A stretch of DNA of 17,970 nucleotides from a virus (IMGVR_UViG_2648501130_000005:1-17970), one strand, 5' to 3'; numbered from the stretch's first letter, positions 2,134-17,970 are shown. Numbers and translations are program-made. Notes: a model not told the origin generated them from the sequence alone.

Positions 2134-3060
2134 TCAGCGACCAATCACCACAACCTGACCACCGTCCCCTTCGTCTGCCGTGCTGATCTCCTGAGAAACC
2201 ACGCGAGACCCCACGCGCATTTCCCCGTACAGAACAGGCAGAACATTGCCCTGGGCAACCATGTTATCCAGTGAGGAGAAATAGGTGTTCTGCTTACCGT
2301 TATCCGTTGTCTGTGTACGGGGAGTTCTGGCTTTCGGTGCCAGCATCTGCGCCACACCACCGAGCACCATACTGGCACCGAGAGAAAACAGGATGCCGGT
2401 CATACCACCGGTCCCAATGGCTGCCCCCCATGCTGCAAGGGTGGCTCCGGCGGTAAAGAATGATCCGGCAATGGCGGCAGCCCCCAGGACAATCTGGAAT
2501 ACGCCACCTGACTTGGCCCCGGCGACTCTGGGAACAATATGAATCACAGCGCCATCAGGCAGAGTCTCATGTAACTGCGCCGTTAATATGTGCTGTTTGA
2601 GTTGACTTTCTTTTGCCGCATAGCCGTCACTTTTGCCGCGATATGGCCCCTGGTAATGTTCAGCAAACAGAACGCGTTCTGTTGCGGGAAAATATGCGCG
2701 CAGACTTTCTTTATTACACCCGTTCCATCGTCCGGACGGCTTCGCCCAGATAATATGGTTAAGAACGTTGAAACGTTCACGCATCATGATCTCGATATCA
2801 GATGCGAGGCGATGTCCACAGAACAGGTAAAGGCTTCCGGCAGGTTTCAGCACCCGCCAGAACTGAGCCAGACAGTGGTCCAGCCACTTCAGGTAATCTT
2901 CGTCCCCTTTCCACTGATTGTCCCAGCCGTTGGGTTTCACCTTGAAGTACGGCGGATCGGTAACAATCAGGTCAATGGAATCATCAGGCAGGGACTGAAT
3001 AAAATGCAGGCAATCAGCGTTGATTAAATCAACACTGTTTATTTTTACAGTATTTTTCAT
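2134..3060 (-). CDS. Chimeric ORF: N-terminal ~165 aa of a beta-class DNA methyltransferase (DPPY motif, no AdoMet-binding motif) fused in frame to the C-terminal ~140 aa of tail assembly protein I
   Basis: N-terminus has DLIVTDPPYF (motif IV) but no FxGxG motif follows. From about residue 166 the sequence (TAQLHETLPDGAVIHIVPRVAGAKSGG ... GGQVVVIGR) matches my recollection of the lambda gpI C-terminus. Junction at about nt 2582/2583. Probably a non-functional fusion. Confidence 0.65.
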   Translation of the reverse strand: MKNTVKINSVDLINADCLHFIQSLPDDSIDLIVTDPPYFKVKPNGWDNQWKGDEDYLKWLDHCLAQFWRVLKPAGSLYLFCGHRLASDIEIMMRERFNVLNHIIWAKPSGRWNGCNKESLRAYFPATERVLFAEHYQGPYRGKSDGYAAKESQLKQHILTAQLHETLPDGAVIHIVPRVAGAKSGGVFQIVLGAAAIAGSFFTAGATLAAWGAAIGTGGMTGILFSLGASMVLGGVAQMLAPKARTPRTQTTDNGKQNTYFSSLDNMVAQGNVLPVLYGEMRVGSRVVSQEISTADEGDGGQVVVIGR

Positions 3061-3209: not shown

Positions 3210-3404
3210 TCATTGCTGAAGGCGTCTGTAACAGCCGAACTGGTAATCTGCCAGCCCCGCCATAACCAACTGGGTCAGTATTAACTGACAGCGTTCGCGT
3301 GAAAGGTATGTGTTTTGTGCAATCTCCCCGACTGTTGCCGGTTCGATGCTTAATTCATTAAAAACAACTTTCGCCGTTTCTGTCATATCTTGCTGTTTTA
3401 GCAT
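3210..3404 (-). CDS. Small putative winged-helix DNA-binding protein (64 aa), function unknown
   Basis: 64-codon ORF with AAGGT 11 nt upstream of the ATG; the central segment ATVGEIAQNTYLSRERCQLILTQLVMAGL looks like a helix-turn-helix. Divergent from the KAP NTPase gene. Start could instead be the internal Met at 3386. Confidence 0.45.
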   Translation of the reverse strand: MLKQQDMTETAKVVFNELSIEPATVGEIAQNTYLSRERCQLILTQLVMAGLADYQFGCYRRLQQ

Positions 3405-3527
3405 GTCTTTTTACCTTCATGGTTAACATGACATACCAATAACTCTTGTCTAAAAAGCCAGCAAGATAAAAAATCAGTATTCACTACCACCAGCGTGTTT
3501 ACCGTACTGCACCAGGTTTACAGGTAC

Positions 3528-3553
3528 AAAAAAACCCGCTCGACAGCGGGTTT
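3528..3553 (-). terminator. Intrinsic terminator on minus strand (8-bp perfect stem, 5-nt loop, U-run)
   Basis: Plus strand reads AAAAAAA-CCCGCT-cgaca-GCGGGTTT, so the minus-strand RNA has the stem followed by a run of U. No annotated minus-strand gene lies immediately upstream. Confidence 0.5.
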
Positions 3554-3676
3554 AAGCTGTGTGGCGAAGTAACCACTCTTAACAGATTACAAGAATTTTT
3601 GCGGACCGCGTTAATGATTTTTAATCCCAAAGTCGTATTATTCGTTTTTTACTGTAGGAGTTAATAGGTTTATATT

Positions 3677-5008
3677 ATGTTAGATACACTATCTTTCACT
3701 GAACGTGACGAGTTCCAACGAAGAAACATCGCTGAAAATATCATCAAGTTGCTAAAACCAGAGGCAGACATTTCACCACTGGTAATAGACGGCGCATGGG
3801 GAACAGGGAAAACAGAATTTAGTATCAAACTGAAAAATCTCATTATTGAGCAAGAAACTGAATCTAAAGTTGTTTATATTGATGCCTTTAAAGGGGATCA
3901 TGCAGAATCTCCATTACTTCTCATAACCTCTGCAATTGCCAGCATTTTGCCTGAGGAAGAAAAACAACACTTCATTAAGAGATCTCTTCCTGCAATTCGC
4001 TTTGGTTTAAAAACGGTACTAAAAGCTGGTGCAGGTTGGTTTTTACGACAGGAGGCTAGTGAAGTTGCCGAAGAATTCCAAGATGCGATGAAGAAAGCAA
4101 GCAATGCAGCAATAGATGGGACTATTGAAAATTTGCTTGAAGACCATATGGACTCAGAGAAAAACATAAATTCACTTAAATCCTGCATCGAAAGCATATC
4201 AAAAAATCAAAAAATCGTAATTATAATTGATGAATTAGACCGATGTAAGCCGAGTTTTTCAACAAATGTCATTGAAACAATAAAACACATTTTTGACATC
4301 AATAATGTCTTTTTTATTTTAGTTACAAACACAGAACAATTAAAAGCATCTATAAATCATATTTATGGTTATAGCATTAACTCACAAAAGTATCTTGACA
4401 AGTTTATAAAATATACCATCACGCTTCCAGATACATGTTTGATAAATGGTCACAACGTATGTAAAGCCTCTGTTATATATTGGGATTACCTTGTAGAAAA
4501 AACAAGGTTATTGAATAAAATCAATAGATTATCAGGTTACTTTATCCGTGATTTAATTCAACGAACCAACTTATCATTACGTGAAACACAAACATTTTCA
4601 CGCAATCTTAACATTTTCCAACTGTTAAACGACGATGAGAACAAAAGCAGTGATCCTTTAATAAATATGATCTTTGTCGTAGCTGCCTTCATACATTGCT
4701 TTGGTAACAAGGAAAAACTAAAACAAGAAATTACCGCTGAATCTATATCTTATTTAGCAGACCTGCTTAACATAAAAGAAATACCTTATTCTTATGAGAG
4801 AAGATCGCAAATCCCTGAAATATCGATTGTATTCTTCGGAATAATTAAAGACAGTATTACTCTTAATGAGCGATTTGCCCCTAAAAGTGATGAAGAACTT
4901 AAAAAATTCACAAATGTTTATACTGATTATGAACACATAAATTTTTGGAGTACTACACCCAGAGAGTTATTGATAAAATATATTAATCAAATGTCATTCA
5001 TCCAGTAA
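3677..5008 (+). CDS. KAP-family P-loop NTPase (443 aa)
   Basis: Walker A DGAWGTGKT and the KAP-typical Walker B region IVIIIDELDRCKP. Visibly AT-rich with long A/T runs compared with flanking genes. Ends at the hairpin at 5011-5035. Confidence 0.85.
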   Translation: MLDTLSFTERDEFQRRNIAENIIKLLKPEADISPLVIDGAWGTGKTEFSIKLKNLIIEQETESKVVYIDAFKGDHAESPLLLITSAIASILPEEEKQHFIKRSLPAIRFGLKTVLKAGAGWFLRQEASEVAEEFQDAMKKASNAAIDGTIENLLEDHMDSEKNINSLKSCIESISKNQKIVIIIDELDRCKPSFSTNVIETIKHIFDINNVFFILVTNTEQLKASINHIYGYSINSQKYLDKFIKYTITLPDTCLINGHNVCKASVIYWDYLVEKTRLLNKINRLSGYFIRDLIQRTNLSLRETQTFSRNLNIFQLLNDDENKSSDPLINMIFVVAAFIHCFGNKEKLKQEITAESISYLADLLNIKEIPYSYERRSQIPEISIVFFGIIKDSITLNERFAPKSDEELKKFTNVYTDYEHINFWSTTPRELLIKYINQMSFIQ

Positions 5009-7635: not shown

Positions 7636-7958
7636 ACTTTCAGCCCCCTCTCATGTAACCAGTGGGCTGCACGCAGCCTTGCGTTTTCCTCACCGGCAAG
7701 CAGTGAGCGGATAATCCCGACCGCCTCGCTGTCGTCGTCCTTCACCGCGGTATGAAGCGTGATCCCCCGGGCCACACCACGCTTTATCGTGATGACGCCT
7801 TTTTTCTCCAGTGCGCGAAGATGCTCCACCGCTGCATTCACCGAACGGTATCCCAGCATGGTTGCCACCTCCTGATTGGTTGGCGGGAAGCCGCGTTCTT
7901 TCTGATAAGAAATCAGCATATCCAGCACCTGCTGCTGGCATTGAGTTAACGTCGTCAT
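7632..7958 (-). CDS. LexA N-terminal DNA-binding-domain-like protein (no peptidase domain)
   Basis: LTQCQQQVLDMLISYQKERGFPPTNQEVATMLGYRSVNAAVEHLRALEKKGVITIKRGVARGITL aligns closely with the LexA N-terminal winged helix as I recall it (…RSPNAAEEHLKALARKGVIEI…). Only 108 aa, so no S24 cleavage domain. ATGA overlaps at both ends. Confidence 0.75.
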   Translation of the reverse strand: MTTLTQCQQQVLDMLISYQKERGFPPTNQEVATMLGYRSVNAAVEHLRALEKKGVITIKRGVARGITLHTAVKDDDSEAVGIIRSLLAGEENARLRAAHWLHERGLKV

Positions 7959-8608
7959 GCCGCCATCTCCCTGACCAGTTTTTCTGCCTGCTGGCGAATC
8001 TGCGCCAGAAAGGCCTCACCACATGCCTCAAGTTCATCGCGCCCGATGTAGCTGATTGCCGGTCCCTTCCAGGTCTTGTCGAAAACAGCAATAGCACCAG
8101 CGAAGAAAGCGCCTGTCGGCACCTGCTTCTCATCCTTCGGGATAAACCAGGCAGGCAGTTCAAAACCAATACGCCCGCGAATAAAAGCAATATGATCTAC
8201 ATCTTCCGGCCACCACACTTCGCTGGTGGCAGCTTTGATCAGGAAAACATAGCGCCCGCCTTTATCACGCATGGCACTGGCATGCTTCATGATGTAACGC
8301 ATGCCGGTGATGTATTGCCCCTCATGCTGACTGGCGCGGCTGTATGGGGGATTACCAAAGGCAGCACCTTTAAGCTCCGCAAGGCGTTCTGACCAGTCAT
8401 GCGCCAGCGCGTTGTCTTCCGCCGTGTAATACGCAGCACATTTGGCGTTATCACCGTCAGTGAACAGATCCAGAACAAACGGGCCAAACAGGGTGTTAAT
8501 TCCCCAGAAAATGTTGTCCGGCGTGCGCCACTGATCGCCCACTTCCTTCAGTTCATGGGCTGGTTTGTTCCGCAGTTCCACCAGCGCCTGGCAATATTTA
8601 TTACTCAT
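7955..8608 (-). CDS. Phage N6-adenine DNA methyltransferase (Dam-type)
   Basis: GNPPYS (NPPY catalytic motif). ATG at 8608 with GTGGGGG upstream, overlapping the upstream TAA (TAATG). The track's GTG extension to 8641 was rejected. Confidence 0.75.
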   Translation of the reverse strand: MSNKYCQALVELRNKPAHELKEVGDQWRTPDNIFWGINTLFGPFVLDLFTDGDNAKCAAYYTAEDNALAHDWSERLAELKGAAFGNPPYSRASQHEGQYITGMRYIMKHASAMRDKGGRYVFLIKAATSEVWWPEDVDHIAFIRGRIGFELPAWFIPKDEKQVPTGAFFAGAIAVFDKTWKGPAISYIGRDELEACGEAFLAQIRQQAEKLVREMAA

Positions 8609-9096
8609 TAAGCCCCCACGTAATTCCCTGAGAGATACCACTCTTCACCTGATGCAGCCCGCTTACTGCTTTTCCGTAAACACCGTTCACGACGCGCCAA
8701 AAAATTGTTTCGTTCTGGCAGGGAGTGGCTTTCACGGAATGCCGCCATCCACACCGTTGCAGCACGACGGTATAAGCCCCTGGACTCCAGTTCTTCCGCC
8801 TGGCGGGTCAGGCACAAAATCACCCGCGGGTCGTTAGTGCCGACATAGAAATTGCGCACAGGTCTGGTTTCACGAACTGGTTGTGGTTCCGGATCCTGCG
8901 CTCTCTCAGTCAGGCGCGGGAAATGTCTGTGTGTATCTCCTTCACAACGGTGAGCCACACGCCCACTCTGACGTAACTTGCTTGCTGACTGCAGAACGCG
9001 CTGCCGTGAGTAACCTGCAAAAGCATCCGCAATGTCTCCGGAAGTACAGCCCGGATGGGCTTCAATGAATTTCTGAACGTCATTCAAAAGACTCAT
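8608..9096 (-). CDS. Putative transcriptional regulator with PerC-like C-terminal region
   Basis: AEELESRGLYRRAATVWMAAF resembles the PerC/Pch core motif (LESAGFWRRAAARW type). ATG at 9096 with GGGGGTGA upstream, 2 nt after the replication gene stop. Confidence 0.55.
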   Translation of the reverse strand: MSLLNDVQKFIEAHPGCTSGDIADAFAGYSRQRVLQSASKLRQSGRVAHRCEGDTHRHFPRLTERAQDPEPQPVRETRPVRNFYVGTNDPRVILCLTRQAEELESRGLYRRAATVWMAAFRESHSLPERNNFLARRERCLRKSSKRAASGEEWYLSGNYVGA

Positions 9097-11004: not shown

Positions 11005-11526
11005 TTAAGGAATCCAAGGCGAATTCAGATCTCGCCCCAACTCACGTAATGATCTTGGTCGTTCGTACATCGGATTTTTTTCCATAAGAAATTTATTTTC
11101 ACAGTGAAGGCAACGGCTTGTAAGAAAATGAGAAGTTTTACCTACTGGAAGCGGATGAAGTATCGATTTTATATTTTTGGAATAACAAAGTGGGCACAGA
11201 TGCACAGTTATTTCTTTTCCACTCACAATTTCATTTTTAGAGTAAACAAAAGCACCAGAGTCAAGCTGATCAAGGACATATCCTTCTACCTTGGCACAAA
11301 AATCTTCAAACTCTGCAATTTTTGCTTTGAGATGCATCACCTCTTCATCACGAAGGCGGATCGCATCGCCAAGAGAGAAGCATTCTGCCTGAAGCGTGAT
11401 TAGTTTGTTCTGGAGTTCAATGGTTGCAGCTTTAACTTCTGCATCCGTTTTCGCGTCATTAATAACCTTAGCAAGACCGGCAGTCTCCTTTATAGCGGCC
11501 ATAGCCGCAGACAGTTCAGCTATCAC
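11005..11526 (-). CDS. Hypothetical coiled-coil / zinc-ribbon protein (moron convergent with cI)
   Basis: 173-codon ORF; N-terminal half is Ala/Lys/Glu-rich helical, C-terminal part has CPLC ... CLHC. C-terminal half is visibly AT-rich. Start is GTG at 11526 or ATG at 11502; neither has a strong SD. Confidence 0.6.
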   Translation of the reverse strand: MIAELSAAMAAIKETAGLAKVINDAKTDAEVKAATIELQNKLITLQAECFSLGDAIRLRDEEVMHLKAKIAEFEDFCAKVEGYVLDQLDSGAFVYSKNEIVSGKEITVHLCPLCYSKNIKSILHPLPVGKTSHFLTSRCLHCENKFLMEKNPMYERPRSLRELGRDLNSPWIP

Positions 11527-11848: not shown

Positions 11849-11947
11849 CGCTCTTTTTACAAAACAGAGAAGAACATCACCGGACGACGGGCTCATAACC
11901 CAATCCATCCGGGCGGCTGCCACCGCAGGTGTTCTTCTCTGTTTTGT
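11849..11947 (+). promoter_or_regulatory. boxA-like motif followed by an 18-bp perfect inverted repeat enclosing 53 nt (nut-like site or structured leader)
   Basis: CGCTCTTTTTAC (11849-11860) resembles boxA. Arms ACAAAACAGAGAAGAACA (11859-11876) and TGTTCTTCTCTGTTTTGT (11930-11947) are exact reverse complements. Lies 49 nt upstream of the yfdP-like ATG. Confidence 0.45.
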
Positions 11948-11995
11948 GGAGAAACCAACCGACCTTGCAGGGTCGATATGATTAGGAGCAGAAAA

Positions 11996-12358
11996 ATGGC
12001 TAGCGAACGCAGTACTGATGTGCAGGCATTTATTGGGGAGCTGGACGGCGGCGTATTTGAAACCAAAATCGGCGCAGTTCTCAGTGAAGTCGCTTCCGGT
12101 GTGATGAACACGAAAACCAAAGGTAAGGTCTCACTCAACCTGGAAATCGAACCATTTGATGAGAACCGTGTGAAAATCAAACACAAACTCTCATATGTTC
12201 GCCCGACTAACCGCGGGAAAATTTCCGAAGAAGACACCACCGAAACGCCGATGTATGTCAATCGCGGTGGTCGCCTGACTATTCTGCAGGAAGACCAGGG
12301 ACAATTACTGACTCTTGCCGGTGAACCTGACGGAAAACTCCGCGCAGCAGGTCATTAA
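11996..12358 (+). CDS. yfdP: YfdP-like early-left protein (120 aa)
   Basis: ATG at 11996 with AGGAG 7 nt upstream; the track ORF from 11678 is an unsupported upstream extension. Length and position match the yfdP-yfdQ-yfdR order I recall from CPS-53. Confidence 0.55.
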   Translation: MASERSTDVQAFIGELDGGVFETKIGAVLSEVASGVMNTKTKGKVSLNLEIEPFDENRVKIKHKLSYVRPTNRGKISEEDTTETPMYVNRGGRLTILQEDQGQLLTLAGEPDGKLRAAGH

Positions 12359-12423
12359 TATCGTTCTTAATTAACCGATTATTTATCTCATCACTGAATA
12401 TCTTTATATAGTGAGGACTTATT

Positions 12424-13248
12424 ATGTCTCAGAACTTAGACGCAACCGCAATTAATCAAATCCATGCCCTTATTTCTGCTCAGGGTGTTAATGAAATTAT
12501 CAGTAAGATTGGTGCCGATGCTGTGGCATTGCCTGAGAATTTCCGCATTCATGATCTGGAAAAATTTAATTTAAATCGCTTCCGTTTCCGTGGTGCGCTT
12601 TCCACTGCCAGCATCGATGACTTTACCCGTTACTCTAAAGATCTTGCAGATGAAGGCACCCGCTGCTTTATCGATGCCGATAATATGCGAGCCGTCAGTG
12701 TGCTTAACCTGGGTACTATTGATGAACCAGGTCACGCAGATAACACCGCCACACTCAAACTGAAAAAGACAGCACCGTTCTCTGCTCTGTTGTCTATTAA
12801 CGGCGAGCGTAACTCCCAGAAGTCACTAGCAGAATGGATTGAAGACTGGGCAGACTATCTTGTGGGCTTTGATGCTAATGGTGACGCTATTCAGGCAACA
12901 AAAGCGGCTGCGGCTGTCCGTAAAATCACGATTGAAGCAAACCAGACCGCTGATTTTGAAGATAATGACTTCAGCGGCAAACGCTCCCTGATGGAGTCTG
13001 TCGAAGCGAAGACCAAAGATATTATGCCTGTGGCATTTGAATTTAAATGCGTTCCGTTTGAAGGCCTGAAAGAACGTCCGTTTAAATTACGCCTCAGCAT
13101 TATCACTGGCGATCGTCCTGTACTGGTTCTGCGCATTATTCAGCTGGAAGCAGTGCAGGAAGAAATGGCTAACGAATTTCGTGATCTGCTTGTTGAGAAA
13201 TTCAAGGACAGCAAAGTAGAAACCTTTATTGGTACTTTCACCGCCTGA
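12424..13248 (+). CDS. yfdQ: YfdQ-like protein (DUF2303 family, 274 aa)
   Basis: GAGGA 6 nt upstream of the ATG. Length and N-terminus [14 protein letters not shown]... match my recollection of K-12 YfdQ. Confidence 0.7.
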
Positions 13249-13260
13249 TTTCATTACTGC

Positions 13261-13282
13261 AAATGCCCCTGCGGGGGCATTT
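13261..13282 (+). terminator. Hairpin downstream of yfdQ-like gene (possible partial terminator or attenuator)
   Basis: AAATGCCCC tgcg GGGGCATTT: perfect 9-bp stem, but only a short T-run follows. Confidence 0.4.
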
Positions 13283-13375
13283 ATGGAAACGTAATTGACT
13301 CAATAATCGCCGGATGGTGAGGGCTTCCTTTTACCAGAATTCAGCGCGGTGCAGCGCATATACGTGGAGAACAAA

Positions 13376-13912
13376 ATGTCATTTATTAAAACTTTTTCCG
13401 GGAAGCATTTTTATTATGACAGGATAAATAAAGACGACATCGTTATTAACGATATCGCGGTTTCTCTTTCAAATATCTGTCGCTTTGCAGGGCATCTTTC
13501 ACATTTCTACAGCGTTGCCCAACATGCGGTGCTTTGCAGCCAACTGGTACCGCAGGAATTTGCTTTTGAAGCGTTAATGCATGATGCAACAGAAGCGTAT
13601 TGCCAGGACATCCCGGCGCCACTGAAACGCCTTCTTCCTGACTATAAACGGATGGAAGAAAAAATAGATGCAGTAATCCGTGAGAAATACGAGTTGCCCC
13701 CGGTTATGAGCACGCCCGTGAAATATGCCGATCTCATCATGCTGGCAACCGAACGCCGTGATCTCGGGCTTGATGATGGCTCTTTATGGCCTGTACTGGA
13801 AGGTATCCCGGCAACAGAGATGTTCAAAGTTATTCCACTGGCACCGGGCCATGCCTACGGGATGTTTATGGAACGCTTCAACGAGTTATCGGAATTACGC
13901 AAATGTGCATAA
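13376..13912 (+). CDS. yfdR: HD-domain phosphohydrolase (YfdR-like, 178 aa)
   Basis: H...HD motif (AQHAV ... LMHDATEAY). ATG at 13376 with GGAGA upstream; the track's GTG at 13349 was rejected. Its 3' end overlaps the next gene by 10 nt. Confidence 0.8.
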   Translation: MSFIKTFSGKHFYYDRINKDDIVINDIAVSLSNICRFAGHLSHFYSVAQHAVLCSQLVPQEFAFEALMHDATEAYCQDIPAPLKRLLPDYKRMEEKIDAVIREKYELPPVMSTPVKYADLIMLATERRDLGLDDGSLWPVLEGIPATEMFKVIPLAPGHAYGMFMERFNELSELRKCA

Positions 13913-14781
13913 CTCATGTAGTTAGTTTTTCTGGCGGGAGAACATCCGCATATCTTGTTCACCTGATGGAAGAACAAAGAAAGGCTGGCAATAACGTCTG
14001 CTACATCTTTATGGATACCGGTTGCGAACATCCGCTGACATACCGCTTTATCCGGGAGGTTGTGAAGTTCTGGGACATACCACTAACTGTGTTACAGGTC
14101 GATATAAATCCTGAGCTTGGGCAGCCAAATGGTTATACAGAATGGGAGCCAAAGGATATTCAGACACGAATGCCGGTGCTTAAACCGTTTATGGACATGG
14201 TTAAAAAGTACGGCACGCCATACATCGGCGGCGCGCTCTGTACTGATAGGCTAAAACTCATCCCTTTCACAAAATACTGCGATAACCATTTCGGGCGAGG
14301 TAATTACATCACATGGCTGGGTATTCGTGCAGACGAACCCCGTAGGCTGAAACCGAAATCGGGCGTCCGGTATCTTGCCGAGCTGTCAGATTTTGATAAG
14401 TCGGATGTTATCCGGTGGTGGCGAAAACAACCTTTTGATTTGCAAATCCCGGAGCATCTCGGGAACTGTGTTTTCTGCATCAAAAAGTCAACGCAAAAGC
14501 TGGGGCTTGCATGTAAAGACGAACCAGGTCTGATGCGAGTTTTTAATGAGCTGGTTACAGGCAAACACGTCAGGGATGGTCATCGCAGAACAGGTAAAGA
14601 CATTATGTACCGTGGTCACCTGACGCTTGACGGAATTGCCAGAATGTCTGCCAACAGCGACTACAGAAATTTGTATCAGGCGATGGTACAGGCCAGGCGA
14701 TTCGATACCGGCTCGTGTTCAGAGTCATGTGAAATCTGGGGTGATCAATTGGAATTGGAATTCAAAGAGGTAGGGGTATGA
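13903..14781 (+). CDS. PAPS-reductase-like PP-loop ATP pyrophosphatase family protein with C-terminal Cys cluster
   Basis: PP-loop VVSFSGGRTSAYL near the N-terminus; Cys pairs (CVFC, CSESC) near the C-terminus. ATG at 13903 overlaps the HD gene stop; the track's 13786 start is an upstream in-frame extension inside the HD gene. Confidence 0.8.
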   Translation: MCITHVVSFSGGRTSAYLVHLMEEQRKAGNNVCYIFMDTGCEHPLTYRFIREVVKFWDIPLTVLQVDINPELGQPNGYTEWEPKDIQTRMPVLKPFMDMVKKYGTPYIGGALCTDRLKLIPFTKYCDNHFGRGNYITWLGIRADEPRRLKPKSGVRYLAELSDFDKSDVIRWWRKQPFDLQIPEHLGNCVFCIKKSTQKLGLACKDEPGLMRVFNELVTGKHVRDGHRRTGKDIMYRGHLTLDGIARMSANSDYRNLYQAMVQARRFDTGSCSESCEIWGDQLELEFKEVGV

Positions 14782-15122
14782 CAACCGAAATTAACTACCA
14801 TGCACTGCTTGAGCGCGCACGGAATAAAGTGCAGAGCATTGAGTTCGCCTTAACACAGAGTGCATTCGCTGAGATTCGCGCTGAGCTTGAAAATGATTTA
14901 GAACTGGCACGGATTGCACTGGCATCTCTGGAAGTTGAGCCAGATGAACGCGCAGCCTATGAATTATTTATGGAAAAGCGTTTCGGTAAAACAGTCGATC
15001 GTCGGAGAGCAAAAAACGGCGATAACGAATACATGGCATGGGATATGACTCTCGGTTGGATCGTCTGGCAGCAACGAGCTGGTATCCATTTTTCAACAAT
15101 GTCACAGCAAGAGGTGAAATAA
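14778..15122 (+). CDS. Hypothetical early protein (114 aa)
   Basis: ATG overlaps the upstream TGA (ATGA) and its TAA overlaps the xis ATG (TAATG). GAGG/GGGG upstream. No recognisable motif. Confidence 0.6.
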   Translation: MTTEINYHALLERARNKVQSIEFALTQSAFAEIRAELENDLELARIALASLEVEPDERAAYELFMEKRFGKTVDRRRAKNGDNEYMAWDMTLGWIVWQQRAGIHFSTMSQQEVK

Positions 15123-15472
15123 TGGAGCCATACAGCCTCACACTCGATGAGGCCTGTCATTTTCTCAAGATATCCAGACCGACTGCCATTAACTGGATAC
15201 GCACAGGGCGTCTTCAGGCAACACGCAAAGATCCCACTAAGAATAAATCTCCTTACCTCACAACACGACAAGCCTGCATTGCGGCTCTTCAGTCTCCGCT
15301 GCATACTGTCCAGGTGAGCGCGGGTGATGGCATAACAGAGGAAAGAAAATGTCACTCTTCCGCAGAGGTGAAATATGGTACGCCAGTTTCACATTGCCGA
15401 ACGGTAAAAGATTTAAACAGTCTCTTGGAACAAAGGACAAAAGGCAGGCGACAGAACTCCATGACAAGCTAA
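15122..15472 (+). CDS. xis: Excisionase (Xis), 116 aa
   Basis: ATG at 15122 with GAGGTGA upstream. HTH-like [24 protein letters not shown]. Overlaps the int start as in lambda/P22 xis-int. The track's 15038 start is an unsupported extension. Confidence 0.7.
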
Positions 15473-16512
15473 AGGCTGAAGCATGGCGGGTCAGCAAACT
15501 TGGTGAAATACCTGATATAACGTTCGAGGAAGCGTGTGTCAGGTGGCTTGAAGAGAAAGCACATAAAAAATCACTGGACGATGACAAAAGCCGGATCGGA
15601 TTCTGGCTTCAACATTTCGCAGGAATGCAACTAAGAGACATTACTGAATCAAAAATTTATTCAGCAATGCAGAAAATGACGAACCGGCGTCATGAGGAAA
15701 ACTGGAAACTCAGGGCAGAAGCATGCAGAAAAAAAGGGAAACCTGTTCCAGAATACACGCCAAAACCAGCGTCCGTTGCAACGAAGGCTACGCATCTTTC
15801 ATTTATAAAGGCCCTACTAAGAGCCGCAGAGCGTGAATGGAAAATGCTGGATAAGGCACCAATTATTAAAGTGCCTCAACCAAAGAATAAACGGATCCGC
15901 TGGCTGGAGCCCCATGAAGCACAAAGGCTGATTGATGAATGTCCGGAGCCATTAAAGTCTGTTGTTGAATTTGCACTGGCAACAGGCTTAAGACGCTCGA
16001 ACATCATCAACCTTGAATGGCAACAAATAGATATGCAGCGCCGGGTGGCATGGATAAACCCAGAAGAGAGTAAATCAAACCGCGCAATCGGCGTTGCGCT
16101 GAATGATACTGCATGTCGCGTTTTGAAAAAACAAATCGGGAATCATCACCGTTGGGTATTTGTGTACAAGGAAAGCTGTACCAAACCAGACGGAACGAAA
16201 GCGCCAACAGTAAGGAAGATGCGGTATGACGCAAACACAGCCTGGAAAGCGGCGCTGAGACGGGCTGGTATTGATGATTTCAGATTTCACGACTTGAGAC
16301 ACACCTGGGCAAGTTGGCTGGTTCAAGCCGGAGTCCCGTTGTCAGTGTTACAGGAAATGGGAGGCTGGGAGTCTATCGAAATGGTTCGTCGATATGCTCA
16401 CCTTGCACCTAATCACCTTACCGAACACGCACGGCAAATAGACTCGATCCTGAACCCATCGGTCCCAAATTTGTCCCAGTCAAAAAATAAGGAAGGTACT
16501 AATGATGTGTAA
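15349..16512 (+). CDS. int: Tyrosine-recombinase phage integrase (P22-type, thrW-specific), 387 aa
   Basis: AGAGGAAAG upstream of the ATG. Catalytic HDLRHTW ... RYAHL motifs. Stops 14 nt before the tRNA-Thr 3' end. Confidence 0.9.
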
Positions 16513-16526
16513 CTTATTGATTTAAA

Positions 16527-16602
16527 TGGTGCCGATAATAGGAGTCGAACCTACGACCTTCGCATTACGAATGCGCTGCTCTACCAACTGAGCTATATCG
16601 GC
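16527..16602 (-). tRNA. thrW: tRNA-Thr (anticodon CGU)
   Basis: Reverse complement reads GCCGATATAGCTCAGTTGGTAGAGCAGCGCATTCGTAATGCGAAGGTCGTAGGTTCGACTCCTATTATCGGCACCA: 7-bp acceptor stem, GTTCGA T-loop, anticodon loop with CGT, encoded CCA. Confidence 0.9.
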
Positions 16603-16716: not shown

Positions 16717-17970
16717 TTACGCACGAATGGTGTAATCACCAATACCGATCCACTTGTAAGTGGTCAGTGCTTCCAGCCCCATTGGGCCACGCGCGTGGAG
16801 TTTTTGTGTGCTTACCGCCACTTCCGCACCTAGTCCAAACTGGCCGCCGTCGGTAAAACGCGTAGAGGCGTTAACGTAAACAGCGGACGAATCCACTTCG
16901 TTAACAAAACGCTGGGCGTTGCGCATATCGCGGGTCAGGATCGCATCGGAGTGTTGTGTGCCGTGTTCACGAATATGGGCGATGGCATCGTCAAGATCAC
17001 TGACGATTTTGACGTTCAAATCTAATGACAGAAACTCATCGTCATACTCTTCCGCTTTAACAGCCACCACCTTCGCGGGGCCTGTCTGCAACTGCGCCAG
17101 CGCAGCTGCATCTGCGTGTAATGCCACGCCGCTTTCCTCCATTTGTTTGCTTAATGCGGGCAGGAAGCTATCGGCGATGTTTTTATTCACCAGCAACGTT
17201 TCTACCGTATTACATGTGCTCGGACGCTGAGTTTTCGCGTTGACGATCACTTTTAATGCTTCAGCAATCTCTACACTTTCATCAACATAAATATGGCATA
17301 CGCCTATACCACCTGTGATCACCGGGATCGTCGACTGTTCGCGGCACAGTTTATGCAAACCAGCGCCACCACGCGGGATCAGCATGTCGATGTATTTATC
17401 CATACGCAGCATTTCACTGACCAGCGCACGGTCAGGATTATCAATCGCCTGCACGGCACCCACCGGTAAGCCACAGGATTTCAGGGCGTCCTGAATCACC
17501 GCCACCGTTGCCGCGTTAGTGCGACAGGTTTCTTTACCGCCACGCAGAATCACTGCGTTACCGGTTTTCAGGCACAGCGAAGCGACATCAACCGTCACGT
17601 TCGGGCGCGCTTCATAAATCACGCCAATAACCCCCAGCGGTACGCGACGACGCTCAAGACGCAGGCCGCTGTCCAGTACGCTGCCATCGATTACCTGCCC
17701 CACCGGATCGGCGAGGTTACACACCTGGCGCACATCATCGGCAATGCCTTTCAGCCGTGCGGGCGTCAGTGCCAGACGGTCAAGCATCGCTTCGCCAAGG
17801 CCATTGGCACGCGCGTCAGCAACATCCTGGGCGTTAGCGTTGAGGATGATTTCGCTTTGTGCTTCCAGTTCATCGGCGATTTTTTCCAGCACGCGATTTT
17901 TTTCGCGGCTGGAGAGTTGCGCTAATTTATACGAGGCTTGCTTCGCGGCAATGCCCATTTGTTCCAGCAT
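16717..17970 (-). CDS. proA: Gamma-glutamyl phosphate reductase ProA (417 aa, host gene)
   Basis: Full-length ORF starting exactly at the window end; [40 protein letters not shown]... matches E. coli ProA as I recall it. Confidence 0.95.

Follow-up and report, generated by a model that had tools for sequence, protein, structure and literature searches.

The overlapping yfdR and ninC genes of a defective Escherichia coli prophage: a probable cassette junction, and a possible DNA-directed role for NinC

Introduction

A gene order comparable to the one described below is found in the prophage CPS-53 of Escherichia coli K-12, which carries the cluster yfdP-Q-R-S-T (homologues: SfV orf29-31). The K-12 YfdR protein is homologous in structure to the 5'-deoxyribonucleotidase YfbR, although its affinity for nucleotides is far lower (PMC4776307, citing Zimmerman 2008). 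[quoted passage not shown] The minimal gene set that inhibits initiation at oriC in K-12, when present in multicopy, consists of yfdQ, yfdR and one other gene, yfdS or yfdT, and a role similar to that of lambda P was suggested for the ancestral phage (PMC4776307). The effect of YfdR on DnaA was seen upon over-expression only, and is considered by its authors to be a possible artefact (PMC4776307).

The second gene of interest here belongs to the family of ninC of phage lambda. Lambda ninC is dispensable (PMC10695390), and its product is counted among the poorly understood lambda proteins, showing zero interactions in the two-hybrid map (PMC3224144). In the literature searched, NinC appears in essentiality and interaction screens only, and no assignment of a function was found. 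A homologue with a phenotype occurs in Vibrio phages. When p0018, a fusion of NinC and Dam domains, was moved together with p0019 from phages of the 44E38.1 type into a related phage, the recipient was able to infect a host in which Dnd provides protection (Piel et al., bioRxiv 10.1101/2021.05.05.442762). This anti-Dnd activity was shown for the joint p0018 and p0019 cassette only, and the share of the PAPS-like domain was not separated (bioRxiv 10.1101/2021.05.05.442762). Within the Dnd system itself, the PP-loop ATP pyrophosphatase is DndC, in which three cysteines hold a [4Fe-4S] centre and a separate cysteine dyad serves to transfer sulfur (PMC10853773).

Results and discussion

Organization of the prophage

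The window, i.e. the whole stretch of 17,970 nt that was analysed, is a chromosomal segment of E. coli with a lambdoid prophage that is defective and belongs to the SfV / SfIV / CPS-53 type. No head or tail genes are present in the window. The attachment site is thrW, beside proA, while CPS-53 of K-12 uses argW; proA (nt 16717–17970) lies beyond the tRNA-Thr(CGU) gene of the thrW site (nt 16527–16602, minus strand). A leftward block of late-regulatory and nin-like genes encodes a Q antiterminator, DUF968/HNH, KilA-N, RusA and LexA-DBD proteins, a Dam-type N6-adenine DNA methyltransferase (nt 7955–8641, minus strand, in the nin-like region; Pfam Dam PF05869, 1.3e-45) and a PerC-like gene. A chimeric DNA-methylase / tail-protein ORF (nt 2134–3060, minus strand) and a KAP-family NTPase in a low-GC island (nt 3677–5008) are also present. 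Between the leftward block and the rightward block, which runs from yfdP to int, are cro-like and cI/LexA-like repressor genes.

All genes of the rightward block are on the plus strand. It begins with yfdP (nt 11996–12358) and yfdQ (nt 12424–13248; DUF2303, 2e-92 in Pfam), the upstream members of the yfdP-Q-R module, each 99% identical to its K-12 counterpart. These are followed by yfdR (nt 13376–13912, 178 aa) and, in another frame, by the ninC-family gene (nt 13903–14781, 292 aa), the latter annotated as 'PAPS reductase family protein'. Directly 3' of ninC, and overlapping it by 4 nt, is a yfdT-like gene (nt 14778–15122, PHROG 660), the C-terminal 81 aa of which are 83% identical to K-12 YfdT. 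An excisionase-like HTH gene (nt 15038–15472; coordinates from RefSeq) scores 9.2e-9 with Pfam HTH_17 and 4.2e-6 with TIGR01764 ('excise'), both values coming from the translated stretch nt 15110–15355. The block ends with a tyrosine integrase (nt 15349–16512), for which the annotation, as tyrosine recombinase, gives a later start, at nt 15394, and the thrW site follows. The region nt 11900–15400 is present as 100% identical sequence in many E. coli chromosomes, with all of its genes already annotated in RefSeq. Both genes of interest belong to named families and their exact sequence is already annotated, so they are already known; the initial annotation had not recognised them under their names, YfdR and NinC.

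The HD-domain gene is yfdR

The protein encoded at nt 13376–13912 had been described as an HD-domain phosphohydrolase, and this description is borne out. It matches K-12 YfdR (b2361) at 173 of 178 residues (97% identity), and PHROG 318, 'deoxyribonucleoside 5' monophosphate phosphatase', with E = 2.4e-108. The RefSeq label on the identical sequence is 'yfdR: 5'-deoxynucleotidase', and a solved structure, PDB 2gz4 (Atu1052, deposited as a hypothetical protein), is matched at 8.7e-12. The residues typical of the HD superfamily are present (R36, H50, H69-D70, E73, D78, D119), and align with the HDxxE...D...D pattern of YfbR. A GTG start at nt 13349 was ruled out by alignments of homologues and by the RefSeq annotation.

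E. coli YfbR shares its fold family and its metal-binding and catalytic residues with the YfdR of this prophage, but the two are only 26% identical, and Trp19 of YfbR (R18-W19) is replaced by Phe37. Orthology to YfbR, the housekeeping dCMP phosphohydrolase, was rejected, as the protein falls below the curated cut-offs of both models: 24.8 bits against a gathering cut-off of 25.9 for YfbR-like PF12917 in Pfam, and a score of 20 against a cut-off of 122 for the YfbR equivalog NF003009 in NCBIfam. Given its 97% identity to the K-12 orthologue, from which these properties are carried over, we infer that the protein is an HD-domain 5'-deoxynucleotidase of the YfdR family that would also bind DnaA. 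Action on nucleotides, which the initial annotation had suggested, agrees with its membership of a biochemically characterised deoxynucleotidase family (PMC4776307, citing Zimmerman 2008). During phage growth it may serve in host takeover or in the control of replication. The removal by YfdR of immune signals that are dNMPs, m6-dAMP for instance, is speculation, to which PMC12871103 gives no support.

The PP-loop gene is a member of the ninC family

The adjacent gene encodes a protein 79% identical to lambda NinC (Orf290, NP_040635) over 285 of 290 aa. Its start at ATG 13903 is backed by homologues, by the RefSeq entry of identical sequence (WP_024176184.1) and by the alignment with lambda NinC, while a longer N-terminus, corresponding to the mechanical start at ATG 13786, was ruled out by homologues and the RefSeq annotation. 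The two proteins are similar in length and have all invariant motifs in common, but differ at the N-terminus (MIN... in lambda, MCITH here, where it appears grafted) and in the location of their genes. Lambda ninC is part of the rightward operon, in the nin region between ninB and ninD, whereas the gene described here is in the leftward operon near int, between yfdR and yfdT, and is thus outside the nin-type location (between P/ren and Q, next to ninB). That location does occur in the ninC clades of 79% and 53% identity. Genomic position gives the NinC family its name but does not define homology. The family is large, with 387 clusters of homologues at 50% identity (E of 1e-30 or better in a representative search).

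The PP-loop reads S8-F-S-G-G-R-T-S15, and is accompanied by the motifs DTGxEH and GIRADEPxR; the SGGxxS loop and a GxRxDExxR motif are invariant among NinC homologues. Pfam PAPS_reduct (PF01507) is matched above threshold (1.3e-8), across residues 5–71 only. Five cysteines (C113, C189-x-x-C192 and C272-x-x-x-C276) do not vary among 32 homologues with 26–49% identity, and the C-terminal part (...DTGSCSESCEIWGDQ...) includes GSCSESCE. The earlier description of this protein, as a PP-loop enzyme of the PAPS-reductase superfamily with a C-terminal cysteine cluster, therefore stands: the PP-loop is genuine and the cysteines are conserved.

Likely chemistry of NinC

Among the defence families of PADLOC, the best match of NinC is to SspD (2.9e-14), followed by BrxP (3.9e-4) and DndC (0.015). 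The SspD match spans NinC residues 5–152, equivalent to positions 2–125 of the 277 in the model, and so covers the N-terminal half only. All three families share with NinC a PP-loop ATP-pyrophosphatase core of the PAPS-reductase superfamily and conserved cysteines, but the matches to DndC and BrxP are weak, and their models (468–779 positions) are much longer than NinC. Genes for a cysteine desulfurase, for an ATPase (DndD / SspC) or for a DNA-binding subunit (DndE / SspB) were found neither in the window nor among the neighbours of ninC in 148 related viral loci, and the window has no DndA/D/E or SspA/B/C genes. No solved structure resembles NinC closely (Foldseek TM-scores do not exceed 0.5), and the predicted structure has low confidence at residues 269–292. 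A role in a QueC or 7-deazaguanine DNA-modification pathway was also considered and rejected, as a QueC-like fold or sequence with DpdA, FolE, QueD or QueE neighbours was not found.

By analogy, the five invariant cysteines of NinC would fit an arrangement like that of DndC. C189, C192, C272 and C276 probably hold a metal centre (Fe-S or Zn), and C113 is a candidate for catalysis or for the relay of sulfur. The protein would then be an ATP-using PP-loop enzyme that adenylates a substrate, and is probably not a PAPS reductase of sulfate assimilation.

Association of NinC with DNA adenine methyltransferases

The nature of that substrate is suggested by the fusions in which NinC takes part. PHROG 33262 (495 positions) is a family of NinC-Dam fusions, and is matched by two separate genes of the window, NinC aligning with positions 2–279 (1.3e-89) and the Dam-like ORF at nt 7955–8641 with positions 283–492 (1.6e-95). 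A Rahnella fusion (P0122) shares 72% identity with this Dam in its Dam half, and 49% with the NinC of the window in the other. When ten long members of the NinC family were scanned, six proved to be fusions to N6-adenine DNA methyltransferases. The Dam domain is N-terminal in two of these (P0121, P0123) and C-terminal in three (P0122, P0127, P0150), and in P0128 the methyltransferase is of the D12 class (PF02086). In the 90%-clustered database, three entries (P0079, P0090, P0099) are fusions of NinC with PF05869. The NinC-methyltransferase fusions are found in Escherichia and Enterobacter (WP_172742652.1), Rahnella, Shewanella and Vibrio phages.

The Vibrio phage 44E38.1 protein p0018, of the anti-Dnd cassette described above, is one of these. 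Its NinC domain is 54–55% identical to the NinC of this prophage (~96% of the query), and its Dam domain and the product of the ORF at nt 7955–8641 fall into one Pfam family. It is a single fused polypeptide of a virulent podovirus, however, while here the two genes are 5.3 kb apart and on opposite strands. Its cassette partner p0019 is a DUF6475 protein; YfdR was considered as a relative of p0019, and shows no similarity to it.

Fusion in either order, and to two Pfam families of methyltransferase, is a classical sign that two functions are coupled, and suggests that NinC acts on DNA. A DNA adenine methyltransferase, and not YfdR, appears to be the recurring partner of NinC elsewhere. In the viral survey a Dam gene directly adjoins ninC in 15 of 148 loci, as it does in phage Oslo, but no more than 17 of the 148 have a Dam gene within 3–4 kb of ninC. 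As lambda encodes NinC and lacks a Dam-type methylase, the partnership would either not be obligatory or use the Dam of the host. The most likely role of NinC is to act on DNA in concert with an N6-adenine DNA methyltransferase (a Dam-type enzyme of the phage or host Dam), and in this prophage the separate Dam-like gene at nt 7955–8641 is its likely partner in trans. The two would make or supplement a protective modification, by an ATP-dependent and metal-assisted reaction, at or near the sites recognised by the methylase. Such a modification would blunt modification-dependent restriction, e.g. by Dnd or Ssp.

A more specific, and distinctly tentative, proposal is that NinC serves as the catalytic subunit of a minimal device for DNA modification, carried by phages, in which an N6-adenine methyltransferase gives site recognition and an Fe-S PP-loop enzyme derivatises the DNA. 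The methyltransferase could be fused to NinC, encoded by an adjacent gene, supplied in trans (as by nt 7955–8641) or be the host Dam. NinC would adenylate and thiolate, or otherwise derivatise, DNA at or next to the methylase sites, one concrete possibility being a phosphorothioate at Dam-type motifs.

Modification of RNA rather than DNA, for example tRNA thiolation or lysidine-like chemistry that tunes translation during phage growth, is unlikely. The methyltransferases to which NinC is recurrently fused or adjacent are DNA adenine methyltransferases, the sole known phenotype of a homologue concerns restriction that depends on DNA modification, and no THUMP, PUA or other RNA-binding domains were detected with Pfam profiles, including in the long members that were scanned.

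The overlap as a cassette junction

The initial annotation had regarded yfdR and ninC as a translationally coupled functional pair. That they overlap is correct: the last 10 nt of yfdR (nt 13903–13912, ATGTGCATAA) are also the first of ninC. In a DNA alignment, the window and K-12 are near-identical through yfdR as far as ...AAATG(T/C)GCAT(A/G)A, and are unrelated directly after. The same embedded ATG opens yfdS (DUF551) in K-12, a gene unrelated to ninC, with the same 10-nt overlap. As the start codon and overlap are reused in this way, the overlap is best seen as a feature of the 3' end of yfdR, i.e. a cassette junction. Within this NinC clade, the protein begins differently according to the gene upstream: with MCITH where this is yfdR, and with MSTHH or VSMHQ where it is another gene.

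Gene order is otherwise shared with the CPS-53 cluster of K-12, the slot after yfdR being occupied by yfdS there and by ninC here. This is consistent with an early-left accessory operon, yfdP-yfdQ-yfdR-X-yfdT-xis-int, in which slot X would be exchangeable and holds yfdS in K-12 and a ninC-family gene in this prophage. Recombination precisely at the stop codon of yfdR probably brought the two genes together, in which case the 10-nt overlap would be a property of the slot, and silent on any shared function.

The distribution of the two genes was surveyed in 5426 complete E. coli genomes and in 148 viral-contig loci with NinC homologues. Of the E. coli genomes, 2971 have yfdR and 429 have this clade of ninC; 72 of the ninC places are on plasmids of ~93–130 kb. 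Among the viral loci, a position of ninC behind yfdP-Q-R is limited to the clade with at least 94% identity (41 of 148). At 90–93% identity it follows divergent yfdP'/yfdQ' genes and either an unrelated ORF of 147–187 aa or an ASCH-like ORF, at 69–76% it follows exonuclease, SSB or other genes, and the 79% (lambda-type) and 53% clades have the arrangement ninB-[Dam]-ninC-ninD. No HD protein was found beside ninC in the 90–93%, 79%, 53% and 69–76% clades of the 148 viral loci. Conserved co-occurrence of yfdR and ninC across divergent lineages was not found in these surveys, and their adjacency is confined to one recent clade.

A dedicated two-enzyme pathway, in which the HD hydrolase provides the PP-loop enzyme with a nucleotide intermediate, or removes one, and translational coupling sets the stoichiometry, has in its favour the 10-nt start-stop overlap, the identical conserved arrangement in ~270 E. 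coli genomes and 41 viral contigs, and the handling of nucleotides by both proteins. It is nonetheless very unlikely. The overlap and start codon are shared with the unrelated yfdS, fewer than about 15% of yfdR copies have a ninC neighbour, the NinC clades at 90–93%, 79%, 69–76% and 53% identity are all without YfdR, and the long family members that were scanned include no HD-NinC fusion, while methyltransferase fusions are frequent. The two genes may still have a looser functional link, since co-transcription and the start-stop overlap would co-express them. On the sequence comparisons above, we conclude that yfdR and ninC appear to have been juxtaposed by ordinary lambdoid module exchange, and do not form a dedicated two-gene system; YfdR and NinC probably act independently. 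Of the proposed role in DNA modification or counter-defence, the part that concerns the PP-loop enzyme is partly supported, by the SspD match, the methyltransferase fusions and the anti-Dnd homologue, while the part that joined it to the HD protein as a pair is not supported.

Maintenance of the two genes

Both genes appear to be maintained, but independently of each other, since dN/dS is 0.045 for yfdR and 0.08–0.12 for ninC, indicating purifying selection on both. It could be argued that they do nothing at present and ride along as inert cargo in a prophage under decay, as the prophage is defective, has a chimeric methylase / tail-protein ORF and lacks head and tail genes in the window. This is most improbable, given that both ORFs are intact and under the constraint just described, and that both genes are widespread in E. 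coli genomes and in functional phages.

The PAPS reductase label

In assimilatory reductases the catalytic motif is ECG(L/I)H, with a C-terminal cysteine; the C-terminus of NinC has no ECGxH. A CysH function was rejected, as the similarity of NinC stops at the first ~70–100 residues (alignments to CysH in the PDB end at about residue 100) and the CysH equivalog model NF002537 of NCBIfam scores 20.4 bits against a cut-off of 154. That NinC is an auxiliary metabolic PAPS/APS reductase boosting host sulfate assimilation, as the database name says, is therefore scarcely credible, for although PF01507 is above threshold, APS and PAPS reductases are the best structural neighbours and the PHROG category is 'moron, auxiliary metabolic gene', the TM-scores with those neighbours are 0.5 or below, NinC retains the ATP-binding SGGxxS where the aligned CysH chains have S-S-S-F-G, its C-terminus is GSCSESCE, and its fusion partners are DNA methyltransferases.

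Conclusions

The account that we consider best, and reasonably probable as a whole, is that ninC entered an exchangeable slot downstream of yfdR, that YfdR is a nucleotidase, that NinC acts on DNA with a methylase, and that the two genes are independent. The locus itself adds nothing new: RefSeq already annotates the identical sequence, yfdR has been characterised, and ninC bears the name of a known lambda gene. The negative outcome is of wider use, as it indicates that a start-stop overlap in lambdoid accessory operons may be a reusable cassette junction, and should not be taken as evidence of a functional pair. For NinC, the methyltransferase fusions, the SspD-like similarity and the anti-Dnd homologue provide a testable lead, and point to a DNA-directed role in counter-restriction. 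The family is widespread, and is still labelled 'PAPS reductase' or 'auxiliary metabolic gene' in databases. If the proposed DNA-modification device were real, it would account for a gene that has been an orphan of lambda for more than 40 years, and temperate phages could use it to get past restriction of the Dnd/Ssp type.

Structure of the prophage remnant

The ORF at nt 2134–3060 (minus strand) is chimeric. Its N-terminal ~135 aa form an N6/N4 DNA methylase domain, while the C-terminal part is similar to lambda tail assembly protein I and the tail region. This ORF appears to be a deletion junction, and a sign that the late genes of the prophage have been lost.

A gene for a KAP-family P-loop NTPase (nt 3677–5008, plus strand; Pfam, 9.4e-71) adjoins the Q antiterminator gene, and is the sole occupant of an island of low G+C content (31–37%) within the prophage remnant. 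In PADLOC, its product matches the candidate defence family PDC-S20 (4.5e-177), and it looks like a defence candidate carried by the prophage.

Between the repressor gene and yfdP lies an ORF (nt 11005–11526, minus strand) encoding a hypothetical protein of 173 aa, with a coiled-coil-like segment in its N-terminal part and CxxC...CxxC (zinc-ribbon-like) motifs in its C-terminal part; no family match was found for it. The 127 nt gap between yfdQ and yfdR contains a perfect hairpin (nt 13264–13283, plus strand; ATGCCCC-TGC-GGGGCAT, followed by TTATGG), which looks similar to a processing site or a weak terminator and was not picked up by the consensus scan.

NinC variants, plasmid copies and associated genes

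Many NinC-family representatives of ~330–360 aa (P0124, P0129, P0130, P0132 and others) match the family profile in two stretches, with the break near profile position 150, which implies a variant of the family carrying an insertion of ~50 aa. P0021, an E. coli-type protein of 294 aa that is 86% identical to NinC of the window, combines PF04448 (DUF551, the YfdS domain) with PF01507. It is an apparent recombinant of the two alternative cassettes (yfdS and ninC) of the slot following yfdR.

Within E. coli, 72 of the 461 places at which the window-type ninC clade occurs are on plasmids of ~93–130 kb, which may be phage-plasmids. The plasmid copies, such as those of NZ_CP067430.1 (nt 7822–8689) and NZ_CP077484.1 (nt 497–1364), show a nucleotide identity of ~90–91%.

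The nin-like block of the window includes a Dam-type (PF05869) methyltransferase gene (nt 7955–8641, minus strand), the product of which PADLOC names 'Type II MTase' (8.6e-158). It is the counterpart of the second half of PHROG 33262, the fused NinC-Dam family, and shares 72% identity with the Dam half of a fusion protein from Rahnella.

Within the NinC clade of 90–93% identity, one branch encodes a protein of 190–240 aa directly upstream of ninC (viral loci L045, L047, L048, L053 and L081, about nt 3270–3997), with shorter relatives in L050 and L054 (nt 3419–3997). It shows only a faint match to the ASCH domain (E = 0.0041, under the Pfam cut-off). Since ASCH/PUA-like domains bind modified nucleotides, this neighbour of ninC may be a further hint of nucleic-acid modification.
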